DNA from: Candidatus Omnitrophota bacterium
Lineage (GTDB): Bacteria > Omnitrophota > Gorgyraeia > Tantalellales > Tantalellaceae
Direction: 5' to 3'
Length of the DNA stretch: 46,529 nt
Assembly (NCBI GenBank): GCA_043822885.1
Contig: JBDRBI010000131.1
Span: 1-46,529, forward strand
Shown: positions 3,187 through 44,736 of the stretch, piece after piece
How the letters are laid out: the number at the start of each line of letters is the position of its first letter
How positions within the stretch are numbered: position 1 is the first letter of the stretch
The notes under the pieces: model-generated
What the model saw: the letters and a program-made list of their open reading frames with translations, nothing else
Databases searched by the model: none
What the model was told of the DNA's origin: nothing
Made by a program: the position numbers and the translations under genes

Positions 3187-3201
3187 CTTCTCTCCTTATC
3201 T

Positions 3202-3246
3202 AGTTCAGAGTTATGAGTTCGGAGTTCATAGTAAATAGTAACTGAG
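3202..3246. repeat. GAGTTNN heptamer array
   Basis: agttcagagttatgagttcggagttcatagtaaatagtaactgag. The 18-mer AGTTCAGAGTTATGAGTT recurs exactly at 5811-5828 and as its reverse complement at 7373-7390. The array abuts the SD of the 3007-3186 ORF. Confidence 0.85.
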
Positions 3247-3282
3247 AAAAAATATACCGCTTCTTACTTTGAGCCATTCACC

Positions 3283-3337
3283 GCCACAAGTGTATCTTTC
3301 CGCTTAGACGCGATGCGCTCCAATATCCACTTGTGCC
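3283..3337. repeat. internally deleted (mini) copy of the long-hairpin element
   Basis: tttccgctt..gacgc|gatgcgctccaatatcc aligns with the left and right ends of copy 2 (31105-31116 and 31249-31265) with the central ~135 nt missing. It has its own complementary outer arms CACAAGTG (3285-3292) and CACTTGTG (3328-3335). Confidence 0.6.
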
Positions 3338-3396
3338 GTTCCCCTCTGTACATAACACATCACACATTCCACATTACACAATATCAGTCACTTTCC

Positions 3397-3422
3397 GACT
3401 ATAGTCTATGGTCTATAGTCTC
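3397..3422. repeat. TATRGTC heptamer array directly after the hflC stop
   Basis: gactatagtctatggtctatagtctc, preceded by a degenerate core atatcagtcac (3381-3391). Confidence 0.8.
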
Positions 3423-3423
3423 T

Positions 3424-4359
3424 TCAGTCTAGATTTTTAATGTATTTATAATACTCCCCGTTCGTAGTAAGAACTATAGTCGTTCCGGAGTCTATTGTAT
3501 CCTTATATGTCTCCAAGGTCTTCATAAAAGAGTAGAACGCGGGATCTTTCCCGTATGATTCCGCATAAACAGCTATGGCCGCGGCATCCGCTTTTCCCCT
3601 GAGTCCCTGGGCTGTTTTATAAGCCTCGGAGGTTATAAGTTTCAGTTCTTTTTCCATCTGTCCTTCAACCTCGGCGCTTTTCCCCCTGCCTTCGGAGCGA
3701 TATAATTCCGCGGCTCTTTTACGTTCCGATATCATTCTCTCGTACACTTTCTTTCGTACATCCTCAACGTAATTTATACGTTTTATCCTGACATCCACGA
3801 GTTCTATCCCGTATTGGGGAACGATCTCTTTGGACCGCGTCAATATCTCGGTTTCCAATTCATGCCGCCCTACGGTTATCTTTTCTAAAGCCTCTTCCGC
3901 AAAAGCTATTATTCCGTCCCCTACCATGGTTTCCTCGAGGATACGGTTAGAGTCACGTATCGCTTCTACCAAAAGATGGCTTGTGATTATGTCTCTTGTA
4001 GCGGAATTTATCACATCATCCAGCCGGGCATGAGCGCCTCTTTCCGAACCCACTGATTCCAGAAATTTTAGCGCGTCCACTATGCGCCACCTTGCGGTGG
4101 TATCCACCCAAATGTACTTCTTATCTATGGTAGGGATCTGATTAGGGTCTCCGTCCCATTCCAAAAGACGTTTGTCAAAATAATGCGCCTGTTGTATGAA
4201 CGGCAATTTGATATGAAGACCCGCTTTTGTTATGGTCTGTCCTACAGGTCTCCCGAACTGTGTAATAACGGCTTGATTTGTTTCCGAAACTATATACACC
4301 GCTCCCATAACAAAAAACAGTGTAACCGCGATAGATGATATTTTGATCAAATTTTTCAT
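3424..4359 (-). CDS. hflC: protease modulator HflC (SPFH/band-7)
   Basis: N-terminal TM helix, SPFH domain and coiled-coil tail. The start overlaps the hflK stop by 1 nt. Confidence 0.85.
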   Translation of the reverse strand: MKNLIKISSIAVTLFFVMGAVYIVSETNQAVITQFGRPVGQTITKAGLHIKLPFIQQAHYFDKRLLEWDGDPNQIPTIDKKYIWVDTTARWRIVDALKFLESVGSERGAHARLDDVINSATRDIITSHLLVEAIRDSNRILEETMVGDGIIAFAEEALEKITVGRHELETEILTRSKEIVPQYGIELVDVRIKRINYVEDVRKKVYERMISERKRAAELYRSEGRGKSAEVEGQMEKELKLITSEAYKTAQGLRGKADAAAIAVYAESYGKDPAFYSFMKTLETYKDTIDSGTTIVLTTNGEYYKYIKNLD

Positions 4360-5363
4360 TATTCGCCACCCCCTTGCGTATCAAGTTGTAAAAGCGGAAG
4401 AATTGATTTTTGTTCAGGATCAATTATAAATTTCTTCTTAGCTTTAGGCAAAACATCCGCCATAGTCTCCAAATATAGTCTTTTTTCGGTTATAGCCGGA
4501 GCTTCTTTGTATTCTGTCCATGTCGCTAAAAACCTTTCCGCTTCTCCCTGGGCTCTGTTAATTTTATCCAGACGGTACCCCTCTGCCTGACTTATCGTTC
4601 TGTGCGCTTCTCCTTTAGCGCGGGGTATCGCCTTATTGTACGCTTCCCACGCCTCGTTTATCATGCGTTCTTTTTCCTGTTTAGCCTCATTAACTTCGTT
4701 GAACGCCGGTTTTACCACGTCCGGCGGATTAACGTCCAGAAGCTTTACGGTGATCACGGATATCCCTGTTCCATATTTATCCAAAAGGTCCTGAAGGTCT
4801 ATCTGGGCTTTGTTCGCTACTTCTTCTCTTTTTGTCGTTAAGACCTCATCCACAGAATAGTCTCCGCATAAACGTCTCATAACAACTTCCGACATGTCCC
4901 TCACATTGTTCACGGGGTCCCTCGTCGCAAACAAGAGTTTCACCGGATCGTTCACCCTGAATTGAACTATCCATTTTACATCCAGAATGTTTAAGTCACC
5001 CGTAAGCATCAATGAAGTCTCTCCCTGCTTGCTTACCGAATACTCGCTTCTTATTCCCGGACGCGTGGTCTTAAAACCAAATTCCTCTTTAAATATCTTT
5101 TTGACTTTTACCGGCGTGACCTTTTCAATGCCGAAGGGCACTTTTGCGTGCAGCCCCGGCTCGGTAGTCCGAACATATTTGCCGAATCTTTGCACCACCC
5201 CGACTTCATCCGGGCCTATTGAGTATACCGCGCCCTGTAGTAAAAATATGACAAGAAGCGCTGCTATGACCAGCGGTAAATATTTACCGTACTCGGCGCC
5301 TAACTGTTTCACCTTCTTCGCTTCTTCCCGAAAAAGATCCTCCGGTGAACGAAAATCATCCAT
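4359..5363 (-). CDS. hflK: FtsH protease activity modulator HflK (SPFH/band-7)
   Basis: TM helix followed by an SPFH domain (GPDEVGVVQRFGKY...). Paired with hflC. GGGGAGGG SD upstream. Confidence 0.85.
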   Translation of the reverse strand: MDDFRSPEDLFREEAKKVKQLGAEYGKYLPLVIAALLVIFLLQGAVYSIGPDEVGVVQRFGKYVRTTEPGLHAKVPFGIEKVTPVKVKKIFKEEFGFKTTRPGIRSEYSVSKQGETSLMLTGDLNILDVKWIVQFRVNDPVKLLFATRDPVNNVRDMSEVVMRRLCGDYSVDEVLTTKREEVANKAQIDLQDLLDKYGTGISVITVKLLDVNPPDVVKPAFNEVNEAKQEKERMINEAWEAYNKAIPRAKGEAHRTISQAEGYRLDKINRAQGEAERFLATWTEYKEAPAITEKRLYLETMADVLPKAKKKFIIDPEQKSILPLLQLDTQGGGE

Positions 5364-5440
5364 ATTGCACCCTCCCCTTTTTGTCTTCCTATTCCTAATA
5401 TTCGGCTATTGTATACCAAAAGCGGGTGAGATGCTAGTAA

Positions 5441-6036
5441 AAGATAGACGAAGAGCAGATCAGGAGAAATAGAAGAGAGCGGAAGGAGTCACCAGGTCAC
5501 CTGTCACCAAGTCATCAGAAAAAGAAGGTAGAGGATAGAGGGTAGAAAATGTAGAGGCGGTTCGTGAACCGCCCTTAAAGAGTCACCCCCGGCTGCCTTC
5601 TTTTGGGACATATGGCCGGGGCAGGCAAGTCACCAGTTGATAGAGCTTAGAAGTTAGAAGCGAGAGGCGAGAAGGGAGAGCGTGGAAGATGTCACCAAGT
5701 CATCAGGTCACCAGTCACCAGTTGATAGAGCTTAGAAGTTAGAAGCGAGAAGACAGGAAAAACAAAAGTAAAAAGTAAAAAGTTCGGATTGATTGACTGA
5801 TATGCTCTTGAGTTCAGAGTTATGAGTTGGGTTTTTAATTTTGTCTTCTGGATTTCTACCTTCTATCTTCTATCCTCTATCTTCCAACTCTGACTCCTGT
5901 AAATAAGCTGGTACCCAGGTAACCTGCTTGTCCCGAGCGAAGCCGAGGGGGTAACTAGGTGACCTGGTGACTAGGTGACTGGTGACTAGGTGACTTTTTC
6001 TACTTTCTCGCTTCTACTCTCTCGCTTCTATCTTCC
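5441..6036. repeat. composite mosaic of heptamer arrays in mirror order (~600 nt imperfect palindrome)
   Basis: Left half: purine TAGAAG-type arrays, GTCACCN x4 (5488-5518), AGAAGGT/AGAGGAT (5523-5557), further GTCACC and TAGAAG blocks, AAAAGTA x3 (5763-5783), core GATTGACTGAT (5791-5801), GAGTTNN (5807-5833). Right half holds the complements in reverse order: CTTCTAY arrays (5845-5885), GGTGAC x5 (5950-5994), TTCTAC/TTCTCG (5998-6036). Confidence 0.9.
5582..5634 (+). repeat. GC stem-loop module, copy 1
   Basis: GTCACCCCCGGCTGCCTTCTTTTGGGACATATGGCCGGGGCAGGCAAGTCACC. Homologous to 44416-44465 (same strand) and 41192-41244 (reverse complement). Stem CCCCGGC / GCCGGGG. Confidence 0.75.
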
Positions 6037-6056
6037 ATAAGCCCTAAATACACTAT

Positions 6057-6085
6057 TTGACAAGGGTAGGGCTTTCGAATATAAT
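6057..6085 (+). promoter_or_regulatory. consensus sigma70 promoter of the tRNA gene
   Basis: TTGACA (6057-6062), 17 nt spacer, TATAAT (6080-6085), 23 nt upstream of the mature tRNA 5' end. Confidence 0.8.
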
Positions 6086-6108
6086 GAGGTCTCGTAACTG
6101 CATTCCGT

Positions 6109-6185
6109 GGCGGGGTAGCTCAGATGGTTAGAGCGCACGGCTCATACCCGTGTTGTCGACGGTTCGATCCCGTCCCCCGCTACCA
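6109..6185 (+). tRNA. tRNA with anticodon CAT (Met; could be lysidine-modified Ile2)
   Basis: Hand-folded cloverleaf: acceptor GGCGGGG/CCCCGCT (G1.U72), D arm GCTC-AGATGGTTA-GAGC, anticodon arm CACGG-CTCATAC-CCGTG, variable TTGTC, T arm GACGG-TTCGATC-CCGTC, encoded CCA. It lacks the initiator signature of three G-C pairs at the base of the anticodon stem. Confidence 0.9.
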
Positions 6186-6196
6186 CTGTATTAAAA

Positions 6197-6226
6197 AACC
6201 CGGCTAATGTTAAAGCCGGGTTTTTT
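6197..6226 (+). terminator. rho-independent terminator of the tRNA
   Basis: Stem AACCCGGCT (6197-6205) / AGCCGGGTT (6214-6222), 8-nt loop, T6 tract 6221-6226. Confidence 0.8.
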
Positions 6227-6245
6227 GTTAATTCGGGTTTTCATA

Positions 6246-6267
6246 GGGGGAAACTAGAGTTTCCCCC
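6246..6267. repeat. 22-nt near-perfect palindrome
   Basis: GGGGGAAACT AG AGTTTCCCCC. Confidence 0.6.
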
Positions 6268-6361
6268 TCTTGACGCTTTTCCCTTCATTTTGTTTCACAA
6301 AATTCCGGGGTCGCTGTCACCCCCTTCCCATTGGTGTTATGAATTATGCTATCTGTGCTAT

Positions 6362-6399
6362 CAAAGGAAAAGGAGGAGGTATATCCTCCTTTTCCTTTG
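6362..6399. repeat. 15-bp perfect-stem hairpin
   Basis: CAAAGGAAAAGGAGG (6362-6376), 8-nt loop, CCTCCTTTTCCTTTG (6385-6399). Confidence 0.6.
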
Positions 6400-6444
6400 G
6401 AACCATATCCTCCTCAATTTGTGTCGCTTCGCGACGTGTTTGAA

Positions 6445-6484
6445 TAAAAAAATAGGGTCTGTCCGTGGACAGCCCCTATTTTTG
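6445..6484 (-). terminator. rho-independent terminator downstream of the TauE-family gene (bidirectional shape)
   Basis: A-run 6445-6452, hairpin ATAGGGTCTGTCC-GTG-GGACAGCCCCTAT (6452-6479), T-run 6479-6484. On the minus strand the stem is followed by T7. Confidence 0.7.
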
Positions 6485-6504
6485 TCACTGGCCTTTATAA
6501 TTTC

Positions 6505-7266: not shown

Positions 7267-7276
7267 AACTCAAATC

Positions 7277-7390
7277 AGTTGGGAGTTAGGAGTTCGGAGA
7301 AATAATACAAAATGGTCACTTAACTCATAACTCCGAACTCAACAGCACATCAGTCAATCACTCCGAACTCCTAACTCATAACTCTGAACT
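7277..7390. repeat. GAGTTNN-family hairpin with core motif
   Basis: Left arm agttgggagttaggagttcggag (7277-7299) matches the reverse complement of the right arm (7361-7390) at 21 of 23 positions. Core ATCAGTCAATC at 7349-7359 touches the right arm. Confidence 0.9.
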
Positions 7391-7406
7391 TTTTCGCTTC
7401 TCGCTC

Positions 7407-9495: not shown

Positions 9496-10631
9496 TAAAG
9501 ACTCCTGATTATGCGATCAATATCAACATATTTACTTATCATGTCTTTAACAAGCTTGACCTTATTGCTGTCCCGATATTTTATTTTGACGGTAAGGTCA
9601 TGAACTCGGGATGATACATCATATGTATCAAGGCGCGACATTAGAGTCGGAATATCGGTTTTTTTCAACGCGTTGTATATCCTTCTTTTAGGAGAGATCC
9701 CGCCTGAAAGGATTATTCCGGCTATTCTTTTTGGAGCATGAAAACGTCCGGTATGGACCTTGATAAGAAGATTTATGAGATCCGTTCTGTCTCCGGGAGT
9801 TATGACCAGACAATCCTCCACGAGATAGCTTAGAACAGCTCGCCCCTCCATAGCGCCGACAAGTACTCTTTTCATCTGTTTGTTAAGGAATTTTTCGCCG
9901 CACAAGACCTGCATATCAAGATCTTCCTTGATATCCTGCATAGTAGGCCGATCCAGCATTTTCATGTAAGGAACAACACCTAAAACGGGAATGTCCAGTC
10001 TGTTAAGACCTTTTGTTACATACTTACTTACCTTCTCGTATTTGGAAGGCAGGACCTTGTTCACTATGACTCCGACTGTTTTTACGCCCATCTTATCAAA
10101 AACAGACTTATTAAGCATAATATCGTCTATAGGGTTTCCGATCCCTCCTTGGGAGACAAGGATAACTTTACTTTCAAGCATCTTGGCCACGGCGGCATTT
10201 GAAAGATCGAACACCGAACCTACCCCCGCGTGTCCCGTTCCTTCTATGATCACAAGTTCTTTTTCATCCGCGACAACATTGAAAGCCTTTTGAATTTTTA
10301 CCGAGAGATTATCCAGATCCTTACCATCGAGAAAATTTTCGGTATACCCTTTCCCTACCGTGATCGGGGACATCACCTGTAAGGGAAAATTGAATTTAAA
10401 GATCTTTTCCATAAGAATAGAATCTTCATCAACCTTATGTCCTTTCTCTATAAGATACCTTTGACCGACAGGTTTTATGAAACCGATCTTTTTGAATCTG
10501 TCCGATAAAGCGGCGATAAGCCCCAGAGATACTGTGGTCTTTCCTATATTCTGGCGGGTAGCGGCGATAAATATACGTTTACATCTTCGTGTTCCGAAGA
10601 TCTTTTCCCAAGTTTCTGTATATGTTTTCAT
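9495..10631 (-). CDS. phosphotransacetylase N-terminal-like protein (BioD-like P-loop plus DRTGG domain), no catalytic PTA domain
   Basis: IAATRQNIGKTTVSLGL P-loop, then VITPGDRTDL (DRTGG motif). 378 aa. The C-terminal PTA_PTB catalytic domain is absent. Confidence 0.65.
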   Translation of the reverse strand: MKTYTETWEKIFGTRRCKRIFIAATRQNIGKTTVSLGLIAALSDRFKKIGFIKPVGQRYLIEKGHKVDEDSILMEKIFKFNFPLQVMSPITVGKGYTENFLDGKDLDNLSVKIQKAFNVVADEKELVIIEGTGHAGVGSVFDLSNAAVAKMLESKVILVSQGGIGNPIDDIMLNKSVFDKMGVKTVGVIVNKVLPSKYEKVSKYVTKGLNRLDIPVLGVVPYMKMLDRPTMQDIKEDLDMQVLCGEKFLNKQMKRVLVGAMEGRAVLSYLVEDCLVITPGDRTDLINLLIKVHTGRFHAPKRIAGIILSGGISPKRRIYNALKKTDIPTLMSRLDTYDVSSRVHDLTVKIKYRDSNKVKLVKDMISKYVDIDRIIRSL

Positions 10632-11460: not shown

Positions 11461-11548
11461 AATATTTTACGTAACAGGGCTTAAGTTGAGAGAAGACGGT
11501 AATATTCTGCGCGTCTCACAAAACTTCTCTGTTTTTTTATGTTTCAGC

Positions 11549-11592
11549 AGTCTATAGTCTATGGTCTATTGCCTATTGTCTATGGTCGTCTC
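11549..11592. repeat. TATRGTC-family heptamer array abutting the metF stop
   Basis: agtctatagtctatggtctattgcctattgtctatggtcgtctc. No complementary partner in this gap. Confidence 0.8.
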
Positions 11593-16305: not shown

Positions 16306-16648
16306 TTTTTTCCTTCACCTTAGTGGCCTTTTTCCCGAGCTTACTTCTAAGGTAATACAATTTAGCGCGTCTTATTTTACCCTTCTTCTTTACTTCGATC
16401 TTCTCTATCAAAGGGGAATACATAGGAAAGGTTCTCTCAACACCTTCTCCATAAGATACGCGTCTGACGGTAAACGTCTCGCTTGTTCCCGTCCCCTTTC
16501 GTGCGATAACAATGCCGGTGAATATCTGCACCCTCATCTTATTCTCTTCTTTGATCATAAAATGAACATCTACGGTATCCCCGATATTGAATTTTGAGAT
16601 ATCCTTTTTTATGAATTTTTTTTCAAGATCGCTTATCTGCTTTTTCAT
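16280..16648 (-). CDS. rplS: 50S ribosomal protein L19
   Basis: [10 protein letters not shown]...RVQ.F.G L19 signature. AAGGAGAGG SD upstream. ATGA overlap with the trmD stop. Confidence 0.9.
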
Positions 16649-17445
16649 CTTTTTCCTCTCCTTACCATTTTACAAGGGGAGATTGCCTCGTCTCTGCGCT
16701 CCTCGCAATGACGGCGCCCCCGCACATTCACTTTTTCCTCTAAATTTGCACATCGGTCAATCTCAATCCATGGTCTATCGTCTACCAAAAGATCCGGTCT
16801 TCTCTCCTTCGTCCTGATCTCCGCCTGTTCTTTTTGCCAAATACTTATTTTTTTCGGATCTCCGCATAATAGAACCTCGGGAACTTTCTGACCATGATAT
16901 TCCGCGGGCCTTGTATATTGAGGATATTCCAGTTTGCCCCCTTCAAAGGATTCCTCGTTGAGACATCCTTCATCCCCTAAAACTCCGGGTATGAGCCGTA
17001 TCACTGAGTCGCACAACACCATAGCGGGTATTTCTCCACAGGTTAAGACATAATCCCCTATAGAGATCTCCCCGTCGACCAAACTGCGGATCCTTTCGTC
17101 GAACCCCTCATAATGTCCGCAAACAATTACCACATGTTCCTTTTCAGAGATCGATCTTGCCTGATCTTGATCATATTTTTTCCCCTGGGGCGTCAATAGG
17201 ATCACGTAGGTATTCTCTTTTCTAAGCGTTATTAAAGCTTTATGCACCGGTTCGACTTTTAAGACCATCCCCGGGCCGCCGCCATAAGGCTTATCATCCG
17301 CCGTTCGATGCCGGTCATTAGTCCATTCGCGCAGATCGTGTATTTTTATATCCGCAATTCCGCGGCTTCGAGCGATCTTTACCATAGACTGATCAAAAAC
17401 ACCGCCGAACATATCCGGAAACAATGTTAAAATATCAATTTTCAC
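16645..17445 (-). CDS. trmD: tRNA (guanine37-N1)-methyltransferase, GTG start, repeat-derived C-terminal tail
   Basis: [15 protein letters not shown] motif. GTG start with a GGAG SD. The last ~45 codons ([14 protein letters not shown]...) are encoded by a heptamer array plus core motif. Confidence 0.88.
16748..16786 (+). repeat. core motif plus heptamer array embedded in the trmD 3' coding region
   Basis: GCACATCGGTCAATC (16748-16762) followed by tcaatccatggtctatcgtctacc. Same architecture as the intergenic copies. Confidence 0.75.
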
Positions 17446-17458
17446 AAAAACTCCTGTC

Positions 17459-17642
17459 GAGTTGATAGTTCATAGTTGATAGTTCATAGTTTAAAAAAAG
17501 CTTACCCGGGTTCATACTATAAAGCTATAAACTTAACGGTGCACCAGTCAATCTTCGAACCTTTTAACCTTTAAACTTTTTAACTTTTAAACCGTTCCGG
17601 CATCGGTCAATCACTACGAACTATGAAATATCAACTATTAAC
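17459..17642. repeat. ATAGTTN-family hairpin between rpsP and trmD, two core motifs
   Basis: Arms gagttgatagttcatagttgatagttcatagtt (17459-17491) and cactacgaactatgaaatatcaactattaac (17612-17642). Cores ACCAGTCAATC (17543-17553) and ATCGGTCAATC (17602-17612). CTTTTAA-type array at 17560-17593. Confidence 0.9.
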
Positions 17643-17643
17643 C

Positions 17644-17883: not shown

Positions 17884-17900
17884 CCTATTCCTCCTTGTTT

Positions 17901-18023
17901 AGTTAATAGTTCATAGTTGATAGTTCATAGTTAAAAAAAGCGCGCCAAGTATCAAGCATCAACCCCATGTAAAACTTAGCATATCGGTCGATCACTATGA
18001 ACTATCCACTATCCACTACCTAC
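17901..18023. repeat. ATAGTTN-family hairpin between murA and rpsP
   Basis: Arms agttaatagttcatagttgatagttcatagtt (17901-17932) and cactatgaactatccactatccactacctac (17993-18023). Core variant ATCGGTCGATC at 17983-17993. Paralogous to 17459-17642, including the TTAAAAAAAGC that follows the left arm. Confidence 0.9.
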
Positions 18024-19958: not shown

Positions 19959-21034
19959 TAACCACTCAGCTTTATCTTCCTATTTTCCTCTATAAGGGCA
20001 TTCACGACCTCGCTAATGTCGCCTTCGAGAATATTGGACAGATTGTGTATGGTAAGTCCGATACGATGATCCGTGACTCTGTTCTCGGGAAAATTGTATG
20101 TTCTTATCTTTTCGGACCTGTCTCCCGAGCCTATTTGCTTCTTTCTTTTTTCAGATCGTTCTTTTTCTTTTGCTTCATGCAGCTTCTCCAGGATACGGGC
20201 TTTTAAAACACGCATAGCCTTCGCTTTGTTCTTATGTTGACTTCTCTCGTCCTGGCAGCTTACCACTACTCCCGTGGATAGATGCGTTATACGCACCGCG
20301 GAATCCGTAACATTTACATGTTGCCCTCCCGCTCCGCTCGCTCTGTAATAGTCTATTTTCAGGTCCTGCGGTTTTAAGTCCACTTCTACATCTTCCGCTT
20401 CCGGCAGAACCGCGACCGTAGCGGCAGAAGTATGTATACGCCCGCTCGCTTCTGTTTCAGGAACCCTCTGAACTCTGTGTGTCCCCATCTCAAATCTCAA
20501 ATATTTAAAAACATTCTGCCCCTCAACGGAAAAGATAACTTCTTTGATCCCCTTTTTTTCCGATTCACTTAAACTTATGATCGTATTTTTCCATCCTCTT
20601 GAAGACGAATACTTTAAGTACATTTTGTAAAGATCCGCGGCAAACAGACCGGCTTCCACCCCTCCGGTACCCGCGCGGATCTCCACAATGACATTTCTTT
20701 TTCCTTCTTCATCATCTCCCTGCAAAAGGAGATCCTCAAGTTCTCTCTTTTTAGCAAGGATAGCGCCTTTAACTTCTTCCAGTTCTCTGCCGGCCAAAAC
20801 GGCATATTCACTGTCTTTGGCCTCTTCCTTGATCATTGTCTCGAGTTCTCTTTTTTCTTTTTCGAGCGCCAGATAACTTTCGTAATGAGACACGCTTTCT
20901 TTCAGCTCCGCGTATTCTTTAGCTTTTTCCGTATGCTTTTCCCTGTTGGACAAAAATTCCGGAGAAGAAAGCTCTTTTTCTAATGTCCTATATTTTTCTT
21001 TTCGTTTTTCAAGTTCCGAGATGATTTTTTTCAT
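19958..21034 (-). CDS. prfA: peptide chain release factor 1
   Basis: GGQ motif (SGAGGQHVN) and RF1 overall architecture. 358 aa. Confidence 0.92.
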
Positions 21035-21412: not shown

Positions 21413-22693
21413 TTAAGATTTCCCCATATTTTGGAAAAATTCCTCATTTGTCTTCGCTTTCTTTAAACGATCTATTAATAGCTGCATGGCCTCGACAGAA
21501 TCCATATCACTCAAAGCCTTTCTCATAAGCCAGATCTTCTTAAGCTCATCCTCTTCCACAAGAAGCTCCTCTTTACGGGTATTGGATCTTTTTATATCTA
21601 TTGAGGGGTAAATCCTTCTCTGGAAAAGATTTCTGTCCAACTGTATTTCCATATTGCCGGTACCTTTAAACTCCTCGAATATTACCTCATCCATGCGGCT
21701 TCCTGTATCAACCAATGCTGTAGCGATTATCGTAAGGCTTCCGCCTTCTTCAACATTCCGGGCAGTTCCAAAGAACCGTTTTGGTTTATGCAAGGCATTC
21801 GCGTCGACCCCTCCGGAAAGTATTTTACCCGAATGAGGTACGGTAGTATTGTATGCCCTCGCCAGACGCGTTATAGAATCCAGCAATATGATCACGTCGT
21901 ATTTGTGCTCTACAAGGCGTTTTGCTTTATGTAGCACCATTTCCGCCACCTGAGTATGTCTTTGAGCCTGCTCGTCAAATGTGGATGCTACAACTTCAGC
22001 GTTCACGGATCTTTTCATATCGGTAACTTCCTCCGGTCTTTCATCAATTAAAAGGATTATCAGTTTAATATCCGGATAATTCTGGGTTATGGCGTTAGCG
22101 AACTTCTGTAGAAAAACGGTCTTTCCGCTGTAAGGAGGAGCCACAATAAGCCCTCTTTGTCCTTTTCCCACGGGAGTAAGAATATCCATAACACGCATGG
22201 AGATATCGTTCTCCTCTGTTTCAAGATGAAGTCTTTCCTTCGGATATAAAGGGGTCAGATTTTCAAATAGGATCTTATTTTTTGAGACTTCCGGATTCTC
22301 GAAATTGACCGCTTCTACTTTTAAAAGAGCAAAATACCTCTCTCCCTCTTTCGGAGGACGTATTTGCCCGCTTACGGTGTCACCAGTTTTAAGATTAAAT
22401 CTTCTTATCTGTGACGGCGAAACATAAATATCATCCGGGCAAGGCAGATAATTATAATCCGAACTTCTCAAAAAACCGAATCCGTCTTCAAGTACTTCCA
22501 AAACCCCTTCTCCGTAAGCAAATCCGTCCTTTTCGACCTTGGCTTGCAGTACTTTAAAGATAAGGTCATGTTTTTTCATCCCGCTTATCCCGTTGATCTT
22601 AAGATCTTTTGCGATGTCCGTCAACTCCGAGATCTTCATGCTTTTTAGTTGTACAATATCTAATTCTTTTCCGCTTCCTGAACTTTTTGCCAT
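21413..22693 (-). CDS. rho: transcription termination factor Rho
   Basis: N-terminal Rho_N ([11 protein letters not shown]), cold-shock-like RNA-binding domain, and a RecA-type ATPase with Walker [13 protein letters not shown]. 426 aa. Overlaps the coaE 3' end by 34 nt; Met19 (start at 22639) is an alternative. Confidence 0.92.
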
Positions 22694-23256: not shown

Positions 23257-23340
23257 TCATTTGTCCTTATGTAATTAGTTATTCTCTCTTCTCCTTTTCA
23301 AAAGAGGGTAGAAACTAGATCTCAAGGGTGTAAACTATAA

Positions 23341-23389
23341 TCTACCTTCTATTTTCTACCTTCTAACTTCTCTCTTCTCGCTTCTCTCC
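23341..23389. repeat. pyrimidine CTTCTAN/CTTCTCG heptamer array after the polA stop
   Basis: tctaccttctattttctaccttctaacttctctcttctcgcttctctcc. A partial purine partner agagggtagaaactaga lies at about 23302-23318. Confidence 0.85.
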
Positions 23390-23390
23390 G

Positions 23391-27848: not shown

Positions 27849-27861
27849 TTTCCCTCCTTAA

Positions 27862-27950
27862 TTAGTTCATGGTTGATAGTTCGTAGTTCGTAGCATATTG
27901 ACCGATACTCTATGTTTTAACTACAAACTATCAACTATCAACTATGAACT
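27862..27950. repeat. ATAGTTN-family hairpin between tsaD and mgtC; right arm runs into the tsaD stop
   Basis: From AGTTCAT onward, the left arm (ttagttcatggttgatagttcgtagttcgtag, 27862-27893) matches the reverse complement of the right arm (27919-27950) at 26 of 30 positions. Core variant ATTGACCGAT at 27897-27906. The last 6 codons of tsaD (EFIVDS*) are repeat sequence. Confidence 0.9.
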
Positions 27951-31089: not shown

Positions 31090-31276
31090 GGCGGAAGGGA
31101 ATATTTCCGCTTGTGCGCAATTTCTTAACGCATTTTTTCAAACTTTTTAGGGTGTTAAATGAACTCGCCCTCACTCGTTTTTATCGGTGTTCGGGCTCAA
31201 ACAGCATTTAACAATATTCCCTAAAAAGTTGTAAAAAATGCTAAAATTGCGATGCGCTCCAATGTCCCCTTCCGCC
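31090..31276. repeat. long-hairpin intergenic element, copy 2
   Basis: Outer arms GGCGGAAGGG (31090-31099) and CCCCTTCCGCC (31266-31276). Mid arms GCGCAATTT / AAATTGCG. Inner arms TTTTTAGGGTGTTAAATGAACTCG and CAGCATTTAACAATATTCCCTAAAAAG. Confidence 0.85.
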
Positions 31277-34518: not shown

Positions 34519-34546
34519 ACCGGAATTACCTTATCATAATAATATT

Positions 34547-35000
34547 ATAAAGTCAATCCAGACAGATCTAAGATCGAAGGCCGCAGACCATAGACTATAG
34601 ACACTTGAGAATAAAAGTTAGAGGCGAGAAGATAGAAGCGAGATAAAAGTCACCAGTCACCTAGTCACCAAGTCACCAGTTGACAGGGCACCAGGTAATA
34701 GAAGATAAAGGCGAGAAATTAGACATTGACTATAGACTATAGACCATTGAACATAGACAGAGATTGACTGATGCGGGAATAAGAGTCATAGAGTCAGGTT
34801 GGACCGATGCGGGAGTCGAGTCAAAGAGTCAGTGGCAAAATGTTGACTCTAGAGAGCGAAGCGAACGATGACTCTAATGAGCGAAGCGAATGATGACTTT
34901 ATGACTCTCTCTATCCTCTAACTTATGTATGCAGACTGGTGACTAGGTGACTGGTGACCTGGTGACTCTTTATTCCTTCTACCTTCTCATTTCTCGTTTC
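34547..35000. repeat. composite heptamer mosaic between rsmA and gatC (~450 nt)
   Basis: AGTCAATCCAGAC (34551-34563). GACCATA/GACTATA arrays. TAGAAG-type arrays at 34617-34648 and 34699-34725. GTCACCN array 34649-34698. Cores GATTGACTGAT (34762-34772) and TTGGACCGAT (34799-34808), each followed by GCGGGA. GAGTCNN arrays. 25-nt tandem repeat 34854-34878 / 34879-34902. GGTGAC array 34935-34968. The CTTCT array runs into the rsmA stop. Confidence 0.9.
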
Positions 35001-38837: not shown

Positions 38838-40739
38838 TTACTTTTTGTTAACACTCTTTTTGGCCAGCATAATCTCCGTTTTTAGCAGCCGACAATAGAG
38901 GTCAAACCCTATTTGATCGATAAATCCGCTTTGTTCCATGCCCAGGATATTTCCCGCGCCCCGCATTTCCAGGTCTCTCATGGCTATTTTGAACCCGGAA
39001 CCCAGTTCCTGATACTTTTTTATAGCTTCTAAACGCTTACTCACTTCACGTGTTAGGGACGAAAACTCCCGAACCACTAAGTACGCAAAAGCCTTTCGGT
39101 CAAATCGGCCTATCCTTCCTCTCAGCTGATAAAGATCCGCCAATCCGAATTTATGCGCATCCTCTATTATCATAGTGTTTGCATTGGGAATATCTATCCC
39201 GGATTCAATAATAGTAGTGCACACCAGGACATCTATTTCTCCCTTAATGAATTTTAACATTGTCGCCTCAAGTGTTCTGGCGCTCATTTGTCCATGTCCG
39301 ACCATTATCCTCGCTTCCGGAACGAGCCGGCTCACGCGAGCCGCGATTTTATCTATCGTCTCGACCCTATTATGCACATAATAGACCTGTCCCTTTCTTC
39401 TTATTTCCCTTTCGATCGCCCCTTTTATGATATCTCCGTCATACTCAATAACTTCGGTATTAATGGGCATCCTTTCCGTTGGAGGCGTCTCTATCAAAGA
39501 AATATCTCTTCCACCCATGAGAGCTAAATACAATGTCCTTGGGATCGGTGTCGCGCTGAGAGTAAGTATATCCACATTTGTCCTGACCTTTTTTATCTTT
39601 TCTTTGTGCTTGACCCCGAATCTTTGCTCTTCATCCACGATAAGAAGCCCCAGGTCACAAAATTCTATATCATCCGAAAGCAGTCTATGAGTTCCTATGA
39701 CAATATCTATTTTTCCTTCTTTCAGTTCTTTGATAATGCCTTTTTGTTCGGTATAAGACCTGAAGCGGTTAAGCATTTCTATTTTTACGGGAAACTCTTT
39801 TAACCTTGTAGTAAAGGTTTCCGCGTGCTGCTCGGCCAAGATCGTTGTTGGAACAAGAAACGCTACCTGCTTGGAATCCATTACGGCTTTGAACGCCGCT
39901 CTGAGCGCTATTTCGGTTTTTCCGTATCCGACATCTCCGCACAAAAGACGATCCATAGGACGGATATGTTCCATATCCTTTTTAACTTCTTCGGTAACCT
40001 TTTCCTGATCCGGAGTTTCCTTATACGGGAAATTATCTTCCACTTCTTTCTGCCAATCAGTGTCTTTGCTGAACCCGAATCCCGGAGTGCTTTCTCTTTT
40101 TGCCTGTATTTCCAAAATTTCACGCACAGTACGCGCAATGCCTTTTGAAGCTCTATTTTTTGTCTCGCTCCATCCCTTTCCTTTTAAACTGTTGAGTTCC
40201 GGATGTTTTCTGTTGAAAGAGACATATCTTTGCAGCTTGTGAAGATCTGTACTCTCCGTATAAAGCCTATCCCCTCCCTTATACTCTATGACAAAATAGT
40301 CCTGGAGCTTTCCTTTACGTCTGTGATGCTGTCTGCCGAGATATCTGCCGATACCATAATCTATGTGAACAACAAAATCTCCGGGCTCTATATCCACAAA
40401 GGAATCAATAGGCTGCTCTCCCATAGGATCAAGTTCTTTTTGGGCTTTTTTGCGCCGCAAGGCCTCGATCGGAAGTATAATAACGCCTTTATGTTCGGTA
40501 ATGGTCTTAAACGATACGAGGTCCACGCTCTTAATAGAACGGACAATACCTTCTATGATCTCTATGCGTACCGGATACTCAAAGGTCACAGGATAGACCG
40601 TAAGGATCTCCCCCGCAATAGAATAATCGCCGCAAACCGACACTTTACGGCATCGGGTATAACCGTGTCTATCGAGGAAGGATACGGTCAGCTCCGGATC
40701 TATTTTTTCGTTAAAATATATTTTGAGTGAATCGAACAT
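38838..40739 (-). CDS. mfd: transcription-repair coupling factor Mfd, truncated form (no UvrB-homology module, no C-terminal domain 7)
   Basis: CarD/TRCF RNAP-interaction domain (GDFVVHIDYGIGRYLG). SF2 translocase motifs GDVGYGKTE, DEEQRFG, QLRGRIGR. Only 633 aa, and the ORF begins inside the region equivalent to domain 1b/3. Confidence 0.85.
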   Translation of the reverse strand: MFDSLKIYFNEKIDPELTVSFLDRHGYTRCRKVSVCGDYSIAGEILTVYPVTFEYPVRIEIIEGIVRSIKSVDLVSFKTITEHKGVIILPIEALRRKKAQKELDPMGEQPIDSFVDIEPGDFVVHIDYGIGRYLGRQHHRRKGKLQDYFVIEYKGGDRLYTESTDLHKLQRYVSFNRKHPELNSLKGKGWSETKNRASKGIARTVREILEIQAKRESTPGFGFSKDTDWQKEVEDNFPYKETPDQEKVTEEVKKDMEHIRPMDRLLCGDVGYGKTEIALRAAFKAVMDSKQVAFLVPTTILAEQHAETFTTRLKEFPVKIEMLNRFRSYTEQKGIIKELKEGKIDIVIGTHRLLSDDIEFCDLGLLIVDEEQRFGVKHKEKIKKVRTNVDILTLSATPIPRTLYLALMGGRDISLIETPPTERMPINTEVIEYDGDIIKGAIEREIRRKGQVYYVHNRVETIDKIAARVSRLVPEARIMVGHGQMSARTLEATMLKFIKGEIDVLVCTTIIESGIDIPNANTMIIEDAHKFGLADLYQLRGRIGRFDRKAFAYLVVREFSSLTREVSKRLEAIKKYQELGSGFKIAMRDLEMRGAGNILGMEQSGFIDQIGFDLYCRLLKTEIMLAKKSVNKK

Positions 40740-40749
40740 GATTAGTAAA

Positions 40750-40815
40750 CAGTTTAAAAGTTTAAAAGTTTAAAGGTCTGGATTGACCGATGTGCAAATG
40801 TTATTGACCGTCAGT
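40750..40815. repeat. TTTAAAAG array plus core motif directly upstream of mfd
   Basis: cagtttaaaagtttaaaagtttaaagg (40750-40776), then GTCTGGATTGACCGATGTGC (40776-40795), then a second partial core ATTGACCGTC (40803-40812). Confidence 0.85.
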
Positions 40816-40839
40816 AAGTACGTCGAAATAATGCCAAAA

Positions 40840-41111
40840 GGCAGAAGACAAGGCCTTCCTTCACAAGTGGCATTTTTTTACGTTTTTTTTCTAACTTTTT
40901 AAAGGTGTTAAATGAACTCGCCATAAATAGAAGTTAGAAATTAGAGGATAGATGTTAGAGGAAAAGCGGCTCACTAATCTTGATCTATCTTCTAACTTCT
41001 CGCTTCTACCCTCTATATTTTCGGGCTCAGACAACATTTAACAATGATCCTTTAAAAAGTTATAAAAAAACTAAAATGCCACAATTGTTCCCTCAGGCCT
41101 TGTCTTATGCC
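40840..41111. repeat. long-hairpin intergenic element, copy 3, with a nested heptamer palindrome in its apex
   Basis: Outer arms GGCAGAAGACAAGGCC (40840-40855) and GGCCTTGTCTTATGCC (41096-41111). Mid arms GTGGCATTTT / AAAATGCCAC. Inner arms AAAGGTGTTAAATGAACTCG and CAACATTTAACAATGATCCTTTAAAAAG. About 95 nt of TAGAAG / CTTCTA arrays (about 40923-41019) replace the apex. Confidence 0.85.
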
Positions 41112-41191
41112 TTCCCGAATTTACTCCGTATATGATCAAACCTACCCGCACGGGCTGCTGCACCACCATCTAACATTTTTATTGAAACTCT

Positions 41192-41244
41192 GGTGAACGG
41201 CCTGCCCCCGTGCGTGTTTTCGAAGAAAACAACGGGAGGGGGGG
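41192..41244 (-). repeat. GC stem-loop module, copy 3 (reverse orientation)
   Basis: The reverse complement reads CCCCCCTCCCGTTGTTTTCTTCGAAAACACGCACGGGGGCAGGCCGTTCACC, which aligns with 44416-44465. Confidence 0.7.
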
Positions 41245-41273
41245 TGCCCCTTGGCTAGTAATCTTTATTTTTA

Positions 41274-43663: not shown

Positions 43664-43723
43664 ATTCATTCTCGGATGGTTAAGGTTTTAGGTAGAATTC
43701 AGATCGTAATCAGCTAGCCTGGT

Positions 43724-43798
43724 TTCTCGCTTCTATCTTCTCGCTTCTCACCTCTCGCTTCTGTTCTCTCTATGCACCATGCCCTATGCGCTATGCTG
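43724..43798. repeat. CTTCTCG/CTTCTAT array followed by a CTATGCN array overlapping the nadD stop
   Basis: ggtttctcgcttctatcttctcgcttctcacctctcgcttctgttctctc, then ctatgcaccatgccctatgcgctatgctgc. The last codons of nadD (QHSA*) lie in the CTATGCN array. Confidence 0.8.
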
Positions 43799-44401: not shown

Positions 44402-44415
44402 CAAAGTAGTCTTCA

Positions 44416-44736
44416 GTCACCCCCGCTGTTTTCTTCGAAAACATGCAGCGGGACAGGCAGTCACCTAGTCACCAGTCTAGAAGTTAGAGGGTAGAAGATA
44501 GAAATTAGATTAAATCAGCTAAATGTTTTCTTTCTACCTTCTACCTTCAGTGAAATTCTGAAATTCTAACCAGGTTAGCTAGCTAACCTGGTTAGATCTG
44601 TCAGGTTAGAATTTCATGCTATCTTCTCGTTTCTAACTTCCTTCTTCTACCTTCTATTCCCTGGTACCCCGATCCCTGGTGACTAGGTGCCCTGGTGACT
44701 GGTGACTTTTATCTCGCTTCTATCTTCTCCCTTCTA
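44416..44736. repeat. ~320-nt mosaic palindrome centred on a perfect 30-nt palindrome
   Basis: Left half: GC stem-loop module (44416-44465), GTCACC array, TAGAAG array (44477-44510), CTTCTAC block, GAAATTC repeats. Centre at 44566-44595. Right half: GAATTTC, CTTCT arrays (44619-44657), GGTGAC/GGTACC array (44658-44706), CTTCT array running into the proA stop. Confidence 0.9.
44566..44595. repeat. perfect 30-nt palindrome
   Basis: CTAACCAGGTTAGCT|AGCTAACCTGGTTAG, flanked by GAAATTCTAACC ... GGTTAGAATTTC. Confidence 0.95.

Follow-up and report, generated by a model that had tools for sequence, protein, structure and literature searches.

The stretch analyzed here (the window) comprises the 46,529 nucleotides (nt) of contig JBDRBI010000131.1 (assembly GCA_043822885.1), whose host is a Candidatus Omnitrophota metagenome-assembled genome (MAG). 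This report concerns the tandem arrays of heptanucleotide units that lie in its intergenic spacers, in most of these spacers mirrored by their reverse complements. The window is 43% GC with a GC skew of about -0.2 along its full length, and all assigned protein-coding genes are on the minus strand, the sole plus-strand gene being a single tRNA (tRNA-Met). Housekeeping genes are found among the window proteins scanned, including polA, mfd, fhs, argS, hflKC, mnmA, gatAB, rho (21413-22693), and coaE; rpsP and trmD were recognized via sequence and synteny. PolA and HflK assign the contig to Candidatus Omnitrophota. Tandem arrays were detected using Tandem Repeats Finder (TRF) at a low threshold, with 59 rows reported for the window. 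The mosaic palindrome upstream of hflK is composed of the following features.

5441-6036, unstranded: mosaic heptamer palindrome between hflK (4359-5363, minus strand) and the tRNA-Met promoter (6057-6085, plus strand); one long imperfect hairpin on either strand.
5488-5518, plus strand: GTCACCN(N) array (type A) of the 5' arm, four copies at TRF period 8; more type A at 5629-5634 and 5691-5721.
5523-5550, plus strand: TAGAGGN/TAGAAGN array (type B) of the 5' arm (TRF); more type B at 5645-5679 and 5730-5750.
5555-5632, unstranded: two small GC hairpins in the left arm, GGCGGTTCGTGAACCGCC and AGTCACCCCCGGC...GCCGGGGCAGGCAAGTCACC, read from the sequence; the second has a relative at 44414-44465.
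5628-5665 and 5713-5750, plus strand: exact 38-nt duplicate AGTCACCAGTTGATAGAGCTTAGAAGTTAGAAGCGAGA (100% identity), the copies 85 nt apart, a local duplication of an A-B module.
5764-5830, plus strand: centre of the mosaic, an array of three AAAAGTA units, the core TTGACTGATA (5793-5802), and an array of three GAGTTNN units (TRF and core alignment).
5854-6035, plus strand: 3' arms, CTTCTAN at 5854-5886 (B'), GGTGACN(N) at 5950-5995 (A'), and CTTCTNN at 5998-6035 (B') (TRF and inverted pairs).

The expectation that this spacer can fold into an imperfect hairpin held for the whole region. As DNA, the plus strand of 5441-6036 reached -100.4 kcal/mol (z -6.4), and as RNA the minus strand reached -206 kcal/mol (z -6.5), with none of 100 shuffles as good in either case. 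The longest inverted arm pair (5650-5721 with 5964-6035) is 72 nt long and 76% complementary, and several shorter pairs stand at 85 to 100%; for instance, arms 5487-5502 and 5957-5972 are complementary at 16 of 16 positions, and the type B array at 5523-5550 pairs with 5853-5878 at 85%. The original prediction gave the order of the modules as A-B-A'...A'rc-Brc-Arc. The mirrored layout was recovered, but the true order is more complex, reading A (GTCACC), B (TAGAGG), the two small GC hairpins, A, B, A, B, the centre, B', a spacer, A', and B', so that the left side holds three A-B modules and the right side roughly one and a half. The junction word of the 38-nt duplicate is found again at 34671, and a terminator-like stem lies at 5574-5555. 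A family of small GC-rich hairpins (AGTCACCCCCG-stem-loop-stem-GGCAGGCAGTCACC) was also identified within GTCACC arrays, at 5580-5632, 44414-44465, and 41195-41240; the stems vary between copies with the pairing kept, and blastn matched 41200-41236 to 44458-44422.

Across the window, TRF rows with a period of 7, 8, 14, 15, or 21 lay almost wholly inside 12 gaps between genes. Using an independent gap list (5.8 kb of spacers), 30 rows of period 7 or 8 were found, spread over the same 12 gaps, compared with a mean of 0.36 and a maximum of 3 in 100 dinucleotide shuffles of these gaps and with four rows in 40.6 kb of coding DNA. The other seven gaps longer than 75 nt held no period-7/8 arrays detectable with TRF; the claim that 12 of 19 such gaps carry arrays was therefore reproduced for every gap listed, and the excess over shuffles identifies the arrays as a real, window-wide, nonrandom family. 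Besides period-8 variants, 21 period-7 arrays had at least 2.8 copies. The lag-7 self-match was 0.35 in spacers and 0.25 in coding DNA, with an echo at lag 14, and the lag-7 peak was confined to spacers. Arrays make up 17 to 57% of the spacers that bear them. At least eight different units occur within the window, each 7 to 8 nt long and contiguous, with variation confined mostly to one or two positions (GAGTT-NN, GTCACC-N, TAGAAG-N) and five positions per unit conserved. Perfect 14-nt double units were also reported by TRF and, together with the exact 38-nt duplicate, point to hierarchical duplication.

The remaining 11 array-bearing spacers are as follows.

3187-3423, unstranded: three unpaired arrays (TRF), GAGTTNN at 3202-3232, ACATTAC at 3350-3380, and CTATAGT at 3399-3421, with a core-like site at 3382-3391 (minus strand); no fold excess.
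7267-7406, unstranded: GAGTTNN hairpin (TRF) with a core at 7348-7357 (minus strand); arms 7283-7299 and 7361-7377 complementary at 17 of 17 positions; z -4.8 and -4.5.
11549-11587, plus strand: unpaired AGTCTAT array (TRF), its end 3 nt away from the upstream gene's stop codon.
17446-17643, unstranded: TAGTTNA hairpin separating rpsP from trmD; it encloses an TTTAAAAG array, and cores occur at 17601-17610 and 17542-17551 (minus strand).
17884-18019, unstranded: TAGTTNA hairpin located upstream of rpsP; core-like site at 17982-17991 (minus strand); arm 17901-17939 is 95% identical to 17460-17498.
23303-23388, unstranded: CTTCTNN arrays reaching to 2 nt from the polA stop codon; short complementary partner at 23303-23319.
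27849-27950, unstranded: TAGTTNN hairpin with a core at 27898-27907 (plus strand); z -8.8 and -8.0; arms 27864-27893 and 27921-27950 match at 26 of 30 positions, and the 3' arm extends into the upstream gene, covering its last 20 nt.
34519-34986, unstranded: second large mosaic, with TAGAC, TAGAGG, GTCACC, and TAGAC arrays, cores at 34764 and 34800, GAGTC arrays, and then GACTC, GGTGAC, and CTTCT arrays.
40740-41105, unstranded: TTTAAAAG array with a core (40746-40792) and, within a copy of a palindromic repeat of about 150 nt, a TAGAAG/CTTCTA hairpin at 40925-41015 (TRF and three-copy alignment).
43722-43783, plus strand: unpaired CTTCTCG array, 13 nt from the stop codon of the upstream gene.
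44405-44733, unstranded: third mosaic, GTCACC plus TAGAAG and then CTTCTA plus GGTGAC arrays, around the palindrome CTAACCAGGTTAGCTAGCTAACCTGGTTAGATCTGTCAGGTTAG; z -7.1 and -10.4.

Within the second mosaic, a 25-nt tandem repeat, TGACTCTAAAGAGCGAAGCGAACGA, was also observed at 34844-34898 (2.2 copies, 90% matches), the copies of which begin with the complement of the GAGTC unit. Comparison of RNAfold energies with dinucleotide shuffles gave z scores of -4 to -10 on at least one strand, and on both strands in most cases, for eight of the 12 gaps (5364-6108, 7267-7406, 17446-17643, 17884-18019, 27849-27950, 34519-34986, 40740-41273, and 44405-44733), with stems reaching 20 to 70 bp. The earlier statement that arrays are followed in the spacers by their reverse complements thus applies to these eight; by RNAfold, gaps 3187-3423, 11461-11590, and 43502-43783 fold no better than shuffles, and gap 23257-23390 is weakly better.

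Sequence is shared between spacers over considerable lengths. Both long words quoted in the original prediction are exact: AGTTCAGAGTTATGAGTT occurs at 3202, at 5811, and as its reverse complement at 7373, and GTCACCAGTTGAYAG occurs at 5629, 5714, and 34672 (the last had been placed at 34673). Composite modules of 79, 48, and 39 nt are common to different spacers at 86 to 95% identity, some of them inverted: 34626-34704 against the reverse complement of 44651-44729 (79 nt, 86%), 5781-5828 against the reverse complement of 7322-7369 (48 nt, 92%, comprising core plus array), and 17460-17498 against 17901-17939 (39 nt, 95%). The shared words and modules fit the proposal of spread or gene conversion between loci. 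A separate repeat of about 150 nt, palindromic and resembling a miniature inverted-repeat transposable element (MITE), has the pattern GTGACATTTTTTAACGC...GGTGTTAAATGAACTCG...CAGCATTTAACA...AAAATGTCAC and is present in three copies (215-395, 31105-31270, and 40855-41105) that are 83 to 87% identical. In the third copy, TAGAAG and CTTCTA arrays stand on either side of the retained central loop (CTCACT...). This nested case looks like the growth of an existing stem and not the insertion of a single block, a reading drawn from the layout of a retained loop that is short. The 15-nt word GCGATGCGCTCCAAT was found in two spacers (3310-3330 and 31250-31270) outside any heptamer array and may be part of another small dispersed repeat.

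Several of the arrays adjoin a core motif, TTGACYGATR, of which the window contains 24 sites at one mismatch or less, with 8.5 expected. Ten core sites are found in array spacers, and an eleventh is at the 3' end of trmD. All 11 aligned copies have the form [heptamer array]-GA-TTGACYGATR-YGC, with an array always directly 5' of the core and often a second, different array 3' of it. In hairpins the core forms the 5' edge of the loop, i.e., the centre of the mosaic, and relative to the genes both orientations occur. A role as the -35 element of a sigma-70 promoter was rejected: no copy has a -10 element at 16 to 18 nt, which argues against a promoter, and half of the copies face away from genes. 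The core was missing from 13 loci compared, including the syntenic loci of three relatives (L008, L011, and L012, described below), and in 532 kb of array-rich metagenome loci (80 loci among the matches listed) it gave three matches, about the number expected by chance. It was therefore rejected as a general companion of heptamer arrays and is specific to this lineage.

The copy in trmD lies in the extended 3' end of that gene.

16744-16790, minus strand: two TAGAC units (TAGACGA TAGACCA) and then the core TTGACCGATG (16751-16760).

The C-terminal tail of TrmD (about 30 residues; 16648-16800, minus strand), which is missing in L012 according to the TrmD alignment, is coded by the TAGAC units, the TTGACCGATG core, and sequence also present at 40781-40799. 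A repeat element has been taken into the trmD reading frame.

The arrays keep close to the ends of genes. In seven gaps an array comes to 3 nt or less from the stop codon of the upstream gene or runs into that gene (in one case over its last 20 nt). In five gaps the distance between the last array and the next start codon is 10 to 16 nt, the array abutting an AAGGAGG-like ribosome-binding site. On the gene strand, the best sigma-70 matches are located in array-free spacers (12/12 at 157-130 and 11/12 at 26139-26111), and the 12/12 site at 6057-6085 is the tRNA-Met promoter. With the strongest gene-strand promoters in array-free spacers, the array spacers look like transcribed intra-operon spacers and are probably transcribed through.

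Syntenic loci were compared from genomes whose HflK is 71 to 86% identical to that of the window (L008, L011, L012, L254, L255, L256, and L257). In the three closest relatives, L008, L011, and L012 (HflK 80 to 86%), the spacer upstream of hflK holds the tRNA-Met gene and no arrays. Array density was 0 to 0.6 per 10 kb in L008, L011, L012, L254, L255, and L257, compared with 4.5 in the window. L256 (HflK 78%, 54% GC) had 4.3 arrays per 10 kb, in other spacers and with other units. One of its spacers is a mirrored mosaic of ACAGAGA (six copies), AGTAACA-type units, and GAGTTGT (four copies), followed by AACTAAA (four copies) and, further on, TCTGACT (four copies). Another has GTAACCN, near the GTCACCN of the window, mirrored by GGTTAC. 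The L256 arrays are identical across three public records. A distant relative, L007 (PolA 48%, 55% GC), has an AAAAGGN/CTTTTNN hairpin just upstream of the ribosome-binding site of rpsP. The near-absence of arrays in six relatives and the use of other units in L256 and L007 indicate that they are young and patchy in the phylum; by the same comparison, they are not bound to particular sequences or positions. GGGCTAA/GGCTAAG arrays were also observed in L007 in-frame in trmD and in the gene upstream of an open reading frame (ORF) of EPSP-synthase size (17566-17610 and 20092-20142), where a period of 21 nt (7 residues) in a variable loop seems to be tolerated. The central 25-mer of the third mosaic (44405-44733) is also present in L011, downstream of groEL and without arrays; the palindromic element concerned, CTAACCAGGTTA...TAACCTGGTTAGATCTGTCAGGTTAG, lies at 44560-44610 in the window and at 17699-17765 in L011, just 3' of groEL and array-free.

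Public metagenome contigs were scanned for four KAGTTNN units, yielding at least 80 loci; among the matches listed, these range from 21 to 68% GC, and many carry several further heptamer arrays. On a cyanobacterial contig (L137, with ChlG and NosAFP), a TAACTCC array lies 130 nt downstream of a GAGTTAG array and mirrors it; the contig also carries AAAAGTA and GAGTCCT arrays, and so has GAGTT, AAAAGT, and GAGTC in common with the window. A Chloroflexales contig (L210) contains nine short-looped hairpins, each built from a 7- or 8-nt unit of its own, e.g., GTGACTGACAAGGTGACAAGGTGACAAGATGAC...CATCTTGTCATCTTGTCATCTTGTCAC; its SufB is up to 93% identical to metagenome proteins, and the named matches (85 to 90%) are from Chloroflexota. 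A scan of viral contigs for GTCACC arrays gave, among the matches listed, mostly 22-nt spans (8-nt period), with some seemingly unrelated 24-nt tandem repeats. The mosaic mirror architecture is accordingly not unique to the window, and the uniqueness implied by the original prediction did not survive these array-plus-complement loci, which are common in metagenomes, or the literature precedents described below. A heptamer vocabulary common to different phyla was considered and rejected, as 21 of 116 unselected metagenome arrays came within one mismatch of the units of the window, compared with 29.6 +/- 4.2 after shuffling.

Mirrored period-7/8 pairs were then drawn from 258 loci (2.2 Mb), with pairs from the GTCACC scan of viral contigs pooled into the count of arm polarity. 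The 5' arm contained more G than C in 22 of the 25 pairs that had not been selected by the search patterns (p = 1.6e-4) and in 44 of the 48 that had; examples are L210 1101-1166 and 7511-7608 and L256 4613-4790. Because a palindrome reads alike on both strands, this polarity is not a strand effect. In the window, the TAGAAG, GAGTT, TAGTT, and AAAAGT arrays obey it and the GTCACC arrays break it, the latter always accompanying TAGAAG arrays in the same arm. Stop codons were rejected as its primary basis; they tend to be commoner in 5' arms but are far less consistent than the excess of G over C. The copy numbers of the two arms were correlated in 97 mirrored pairs (Spearman 0.40, p 6e-5), with the arms within one copy of each other in 65 of the 97 (49 expected) and a median distance between arms of 29 nt.

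The closest analogue, as the original prediction had suggested, is the STRR family of heterocystous cyanobacteria, reportedly described by Mazel et al. in 1990. Like the window arrays, STRR have a 7-nt unit repeated in tandem from a few to tens of times, are confined to noncoding DNA with several families per genome, are highly variable between close relatives, and have no assigned function. The strict STRR1-3 have the units CCCCAGT, TTGGTCA, and CAACAGT and a heterocystous cyanobacterial host, whereas no tandem CCCCAGT, TTGGTCA, or CAACAGT was present on either strand of the window, and the window arrays are multiunit mirror mosaics with a lineage-specific core in an Omnitrophota host. Since the metagenome scan found the array-plus-complement layout widely, we regard the arrays as STRR-like heptanucleotide repeats at unusually high density in a new phylum and not as a new class. 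A catalogued family matching the vocabulary, which the original prediction had named as grounds for refuting it, exists only loosely: repeats of this type have been described before, but these particular units are not catalogued. No paper linking heptamer repeats to Omnitrophota was found in the literature searched.

Heptamer direct repeats have been described in Beggiatoaceae, Cyanobacteria, and Bacteroidetes, often shortly upstream of start codons and sometimes as mixed heptamers (MacGregor 2015, PMC4679880). The TAACTGA-type repeats of that study resemble the window arrays in being intergenic, often ending a few nucleotides before a start codon (including those of ribosomal protein genes), mixing heptamers in some genomes, and being patchy and missing from the same spacer of relatives. 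They differ in that nearly all are direct, with one inverted case among 170 sets, whereas a mirror partner is the rule in the window; TAACTGA itself is not repeated in the window. Xanthomonas carries degenerate GGGAATC arrays, including inverted pairs, and heptameric repeats are overrepresented in bacteria generally (PMC4692102, which also mentions three heptanucleotides of Calothrix PCC 7601). These and the GGGGAYT repeats of Nostoc (Rehm et al.) are likewise degenerate intergenic arrays with fixed and free positions whose length varies between close species, some of them inverted and capable of forming stem-loops or cruciforms, and polymerase slippage has been proposed as their origin; however, they are families of a single G-rich unit and G-quadruplex candidates, in contrast to the many units of the window, most of which are unable to form such structures. 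For Nostoc heptamer repeats a regulatory effect has been reported and a binding partner, still unidentified, postulated (bioRxiv 10.1101/2022.06.06.494920). REP/BIME and REPIN-RAYT elements share with the window an intergenic, palindromic, mosaic, and dispersed character, location inside operons, and the ability to fold in mRNA, but REPs are fixed imperfect palindromes of about 20 to 40 nt, conserved in sequence and accompanied by a RAYT gene (PMC3116915), whereas the arms in the window are tandem 7-nt units of many vocabularies. The stated distinctness from REP/BIME, ERIC, and CRISPR repeats was upheld: none fits, the units are contiguous and lack CRISPR-type spacers, no cas genes occur among the window proteins scanned, and the arrays match no Rfam family. 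Only tRNA-Met reaches the Rfam gathering score in the window, the subthreshold matches being generic hairpins such as plant miRNA precursors.

The explanation that we favor, to which we give about an even chance of being right, is that these are fast-evolving, lineage-specific, STRR-like heptanucleotide hairpins grown in spacers by a process acting at the DNA level, as opposed to a conserved RNA gene or a classical transposon. Growth would start from a short hairpin or small palindrome already in the spacer (the TTGACYGATR core, the AACCTGGTTAG palindrome, or the loop of the repeat of about 150 nt), and replication slippage would reiterate units of 7 and sometimes 8 nt. The opposite arm would be copied through intra-hairpin template switching of the quasipalindrome-correction type or through inverted duplication, and such arm-to-arm copying would keep the arms complementary and of similar length. 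Quasipalindrome template switching is a known point and short-tract mutational process in model bacteria that perfects imperfect inverted repeats; it would explain complementary, length-matched arms, and it may also have a role in building repeat hairpins. The nine L210 hairpins, each with its own unit, imply that both arms must arise locally. Composite modules (array, junction, and core) may be copied between spacers via gene conversion or illegitimate recombination, and growth would halt where a stop codon or ribosome-binding site would be damaged. In mRNA the insert would fold on itself, G-rich arm first, leaving a long untranslated spacer structured and the upstream stop codon beside the following ribosome-binding site, and mirrored inserts might be tolerated in operons because, for example, no unstructured C-rich RNA would be exposed to Rho.

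A number of observations weigh against this explanation. Slippage in 7-nt steps and arm-to-arm copying are steps that we infer, and the identical L256 records, which may share one sample, show no variation. Slippage followed by random decay does not predict variation at only one or two positions per unit, which suggests constraint or a protein that reads the units. The G-first polarity (22/25 and 44/48) is not predicted by a purely neutral DNA model; it would be expected if exposure of C-rich, G-poor RNA to Rho were selected against, with the GTCACC arrays as exceptions. The oriented core, with an array immediately 5' of each of its 11 copies (ten of them in spacers), has from its sequence context the look of a recognition site. 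Four of the 12 gaps were counted as arrays without a complementary partner, and the model does not account for the 7-nt size of the unit.

Among the alternatives, the one that survives best, itself unlikely, holds that the hairpins are functional RNA elements in polycistronic mRNA (double-strand-specific processing sites of the RNase III type, REP-like 3'-end stabilizers, shields that prevent Rho loading by keeping long untranslated spacers structured, or bridges from stop codon to ribosome-binding site), their pairing kept by selection on the transcript. It accommodates hairpins that fill the spacer from stop codon to ribosome-binding site in spacers that lack strong promoters and so are probably transcribed through, the stems of 20 to 70 bp, the presence of rho at 21413-22693, the matched arm lengths, and a polarity that never leaves C-rich, G-poor RNA unpaired during transcription. 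In four small gaps, moreover, the sense strand is 8 to 18 kcal/mol more stable than the antisense strand. Nevertheless, the two strands of the array gaps fold about equally well, with z scores no better on the sense strand. Arm mismatches read on the plus strand comprised 17 G.T, 6 A.C, and 16 others, giving 6 wobbles on the gene-sense (minus) strand and 17 on the antisense strand; sense-strand mismatches thus give more C.A than G.U and are not enriched for the latter. G.U wobbles as a sign of selection on sense RNA accordingly found no support, the counts, which are small, running the opposite way. Strands that fold alike and this lack of sense-strand G.U enrichment argue for pairing at the DNA level rather than that of the sense RNA. 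Further points against functional RNA are that the elements are missing from the orthologous spacer of the three closest relatives and so are dispensable there, that arrays are unpaired in four gaps, that the core may point either way with respect to the genes, and that no Rfam family matches.

A broader proposal, which we consider quite unlikely, is that the hairpins are no passive debris of slippage but the product of a single polar process, directed or selected, in at least Omnitrophota, Cyanobacteria, and Chloroflexota. This process would place a G-rich, C-poor array on the 5' side of a small centre and the complementary array on its 3' side, with equal arms, so that a self-folding structural spacer could lengthen the intercistronic region without Rho-loading RNA or the uncoupling of translation; the core of this Omnitrophota lineage would then be a putative seed or recognition site of an array-starting factor.

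It is more doubtful again that the elements are nonautonomous mobile elements of the MITE/REPIN type served by a transposase elsewhere in the genome, with the arrays as subterminal binding repeats and the core as a cleavage or recognition site. Modules with nonrepeat junctions and core do recur in several spacers and in both orientations, an array hairpin is nested in another palindromic repeat, and the core is overrepresented (24 sites, 8.5 expected). However, the shared segments are internal modules without common termini, and neither the terminal inverted repeats nor the target-site duplications of a MITE were found; the nested case has arrays on both sides of a retained loop and is not a single block insertion. 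In addition, mobility cannot produce the units unique to each hairpin in L210 and L256, no transposase or RAYT gene was present among the 20 window proteins scanned, and the core is not associated with arrays in the 80 metagenome loci among the matches listed.

Marginally less probable still are multivalent binding sites for a protein reading about five of the 7 nt (of the cold-shock-domain or S1/OB-fold kind on single-stranded RNA or DNA, or of the nucleoid-associated kind on duplex DNA), with the mirror layout reflecting site orientation. The five conserved and one or two variable positions per unit and the polar orientation of the arms would suit such a protein, as would the binding partner postulated for Nostoc heptamers (bioRxiv 10.1101/2022.06.06.494920) and the reported binding of CspB to heptamer repeats, one protein per heptamer (cited in PMC4679880). 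A single sequence-specific reader cannot, however, explain at least eight unrelated units in a 46-kb window and a separate set in each lineage; the test for a shared vocabulary was negative (21/116 against a null of 29.6), and no candidate repeat-binding protein was identified among the 20 window proteins scanned. An artifact of short-read metagenome assembly is very unlikely: repeats are known to cause misassembly and the MAG contig appears only once in the protein collection, but the arrays are imperfect and vary from unit to unit, the syntenic genes on either side are intact, and stop codons and ribosome-binding sites are spared. Dozens of independently assembled contigs also show this architecture, the arrays of L256 being identical in three records.

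Cyanobacterial heptanucleotide repeats have been known since 1990, and the overrepresentation of such repeats in many prokaryotes since 2007; to our knowledge, their origin and function are still without an accepted account. The window adds a case of very high density (12 of 19 spacers, 17 to 57% array) in an uncultured, small-celled phylum and three constraints for any model, namely, length-matched arms, a G-rich arm that is almost always 5', and inserts that occupy the whole distance between the stop codon and the ribosome-binding site. Should these constraints prove true of the whole genome, a descriptive puzzle would become a set of testable hypotheses on Rho, translational coupling, and hairpin-templated DNA synthesis. 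Array spacers are also places where MAGs are especially prone to misassembly and to spurious ORF calls, and TrmD gained its C-terminal tail from one.

Further observations were made on genes adjoining the array spacers. The mfd homologue (38838-40739, minus strand), which is preceded by a repeat-rich spacer of 534 nt, encodes 633 residues that align to positions 289 to 823 of the 907-position Mfd model, and its N-terminal part may have been lost or split off. A block at 6057-6440, comprising the tRNA-Met promoter, tRNA-Met, a terminator, and a structured region that is conserved, matches L008 9428-9810 at about 90% identity and is inverted in the window relative to the flanking tauE-like gene and hflK; the heptamer mosaic adjoins its promoter end. 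Downstream of tRNA-Met, 6186-6504, a possible small RNA, is strongly structured (z about -9 on both strands), conserved in L008, and rich in GGA motifs; 6363-6473 (minus strand) gave a subthreshold PrrB/RsmZ-like match (22 bits, gathering score 44). In L008, the tRNA-Met 3' flank and terminator (CAGGAATTAAAAAACCCGGCTGATATTAAAGCCGGGTTTTTTGTTAAT...) form a direct repeat (9555-9615 and 9840-9915) around the conserved structured region, a pattern that would be expected after integration at the end of a tRNA gene.

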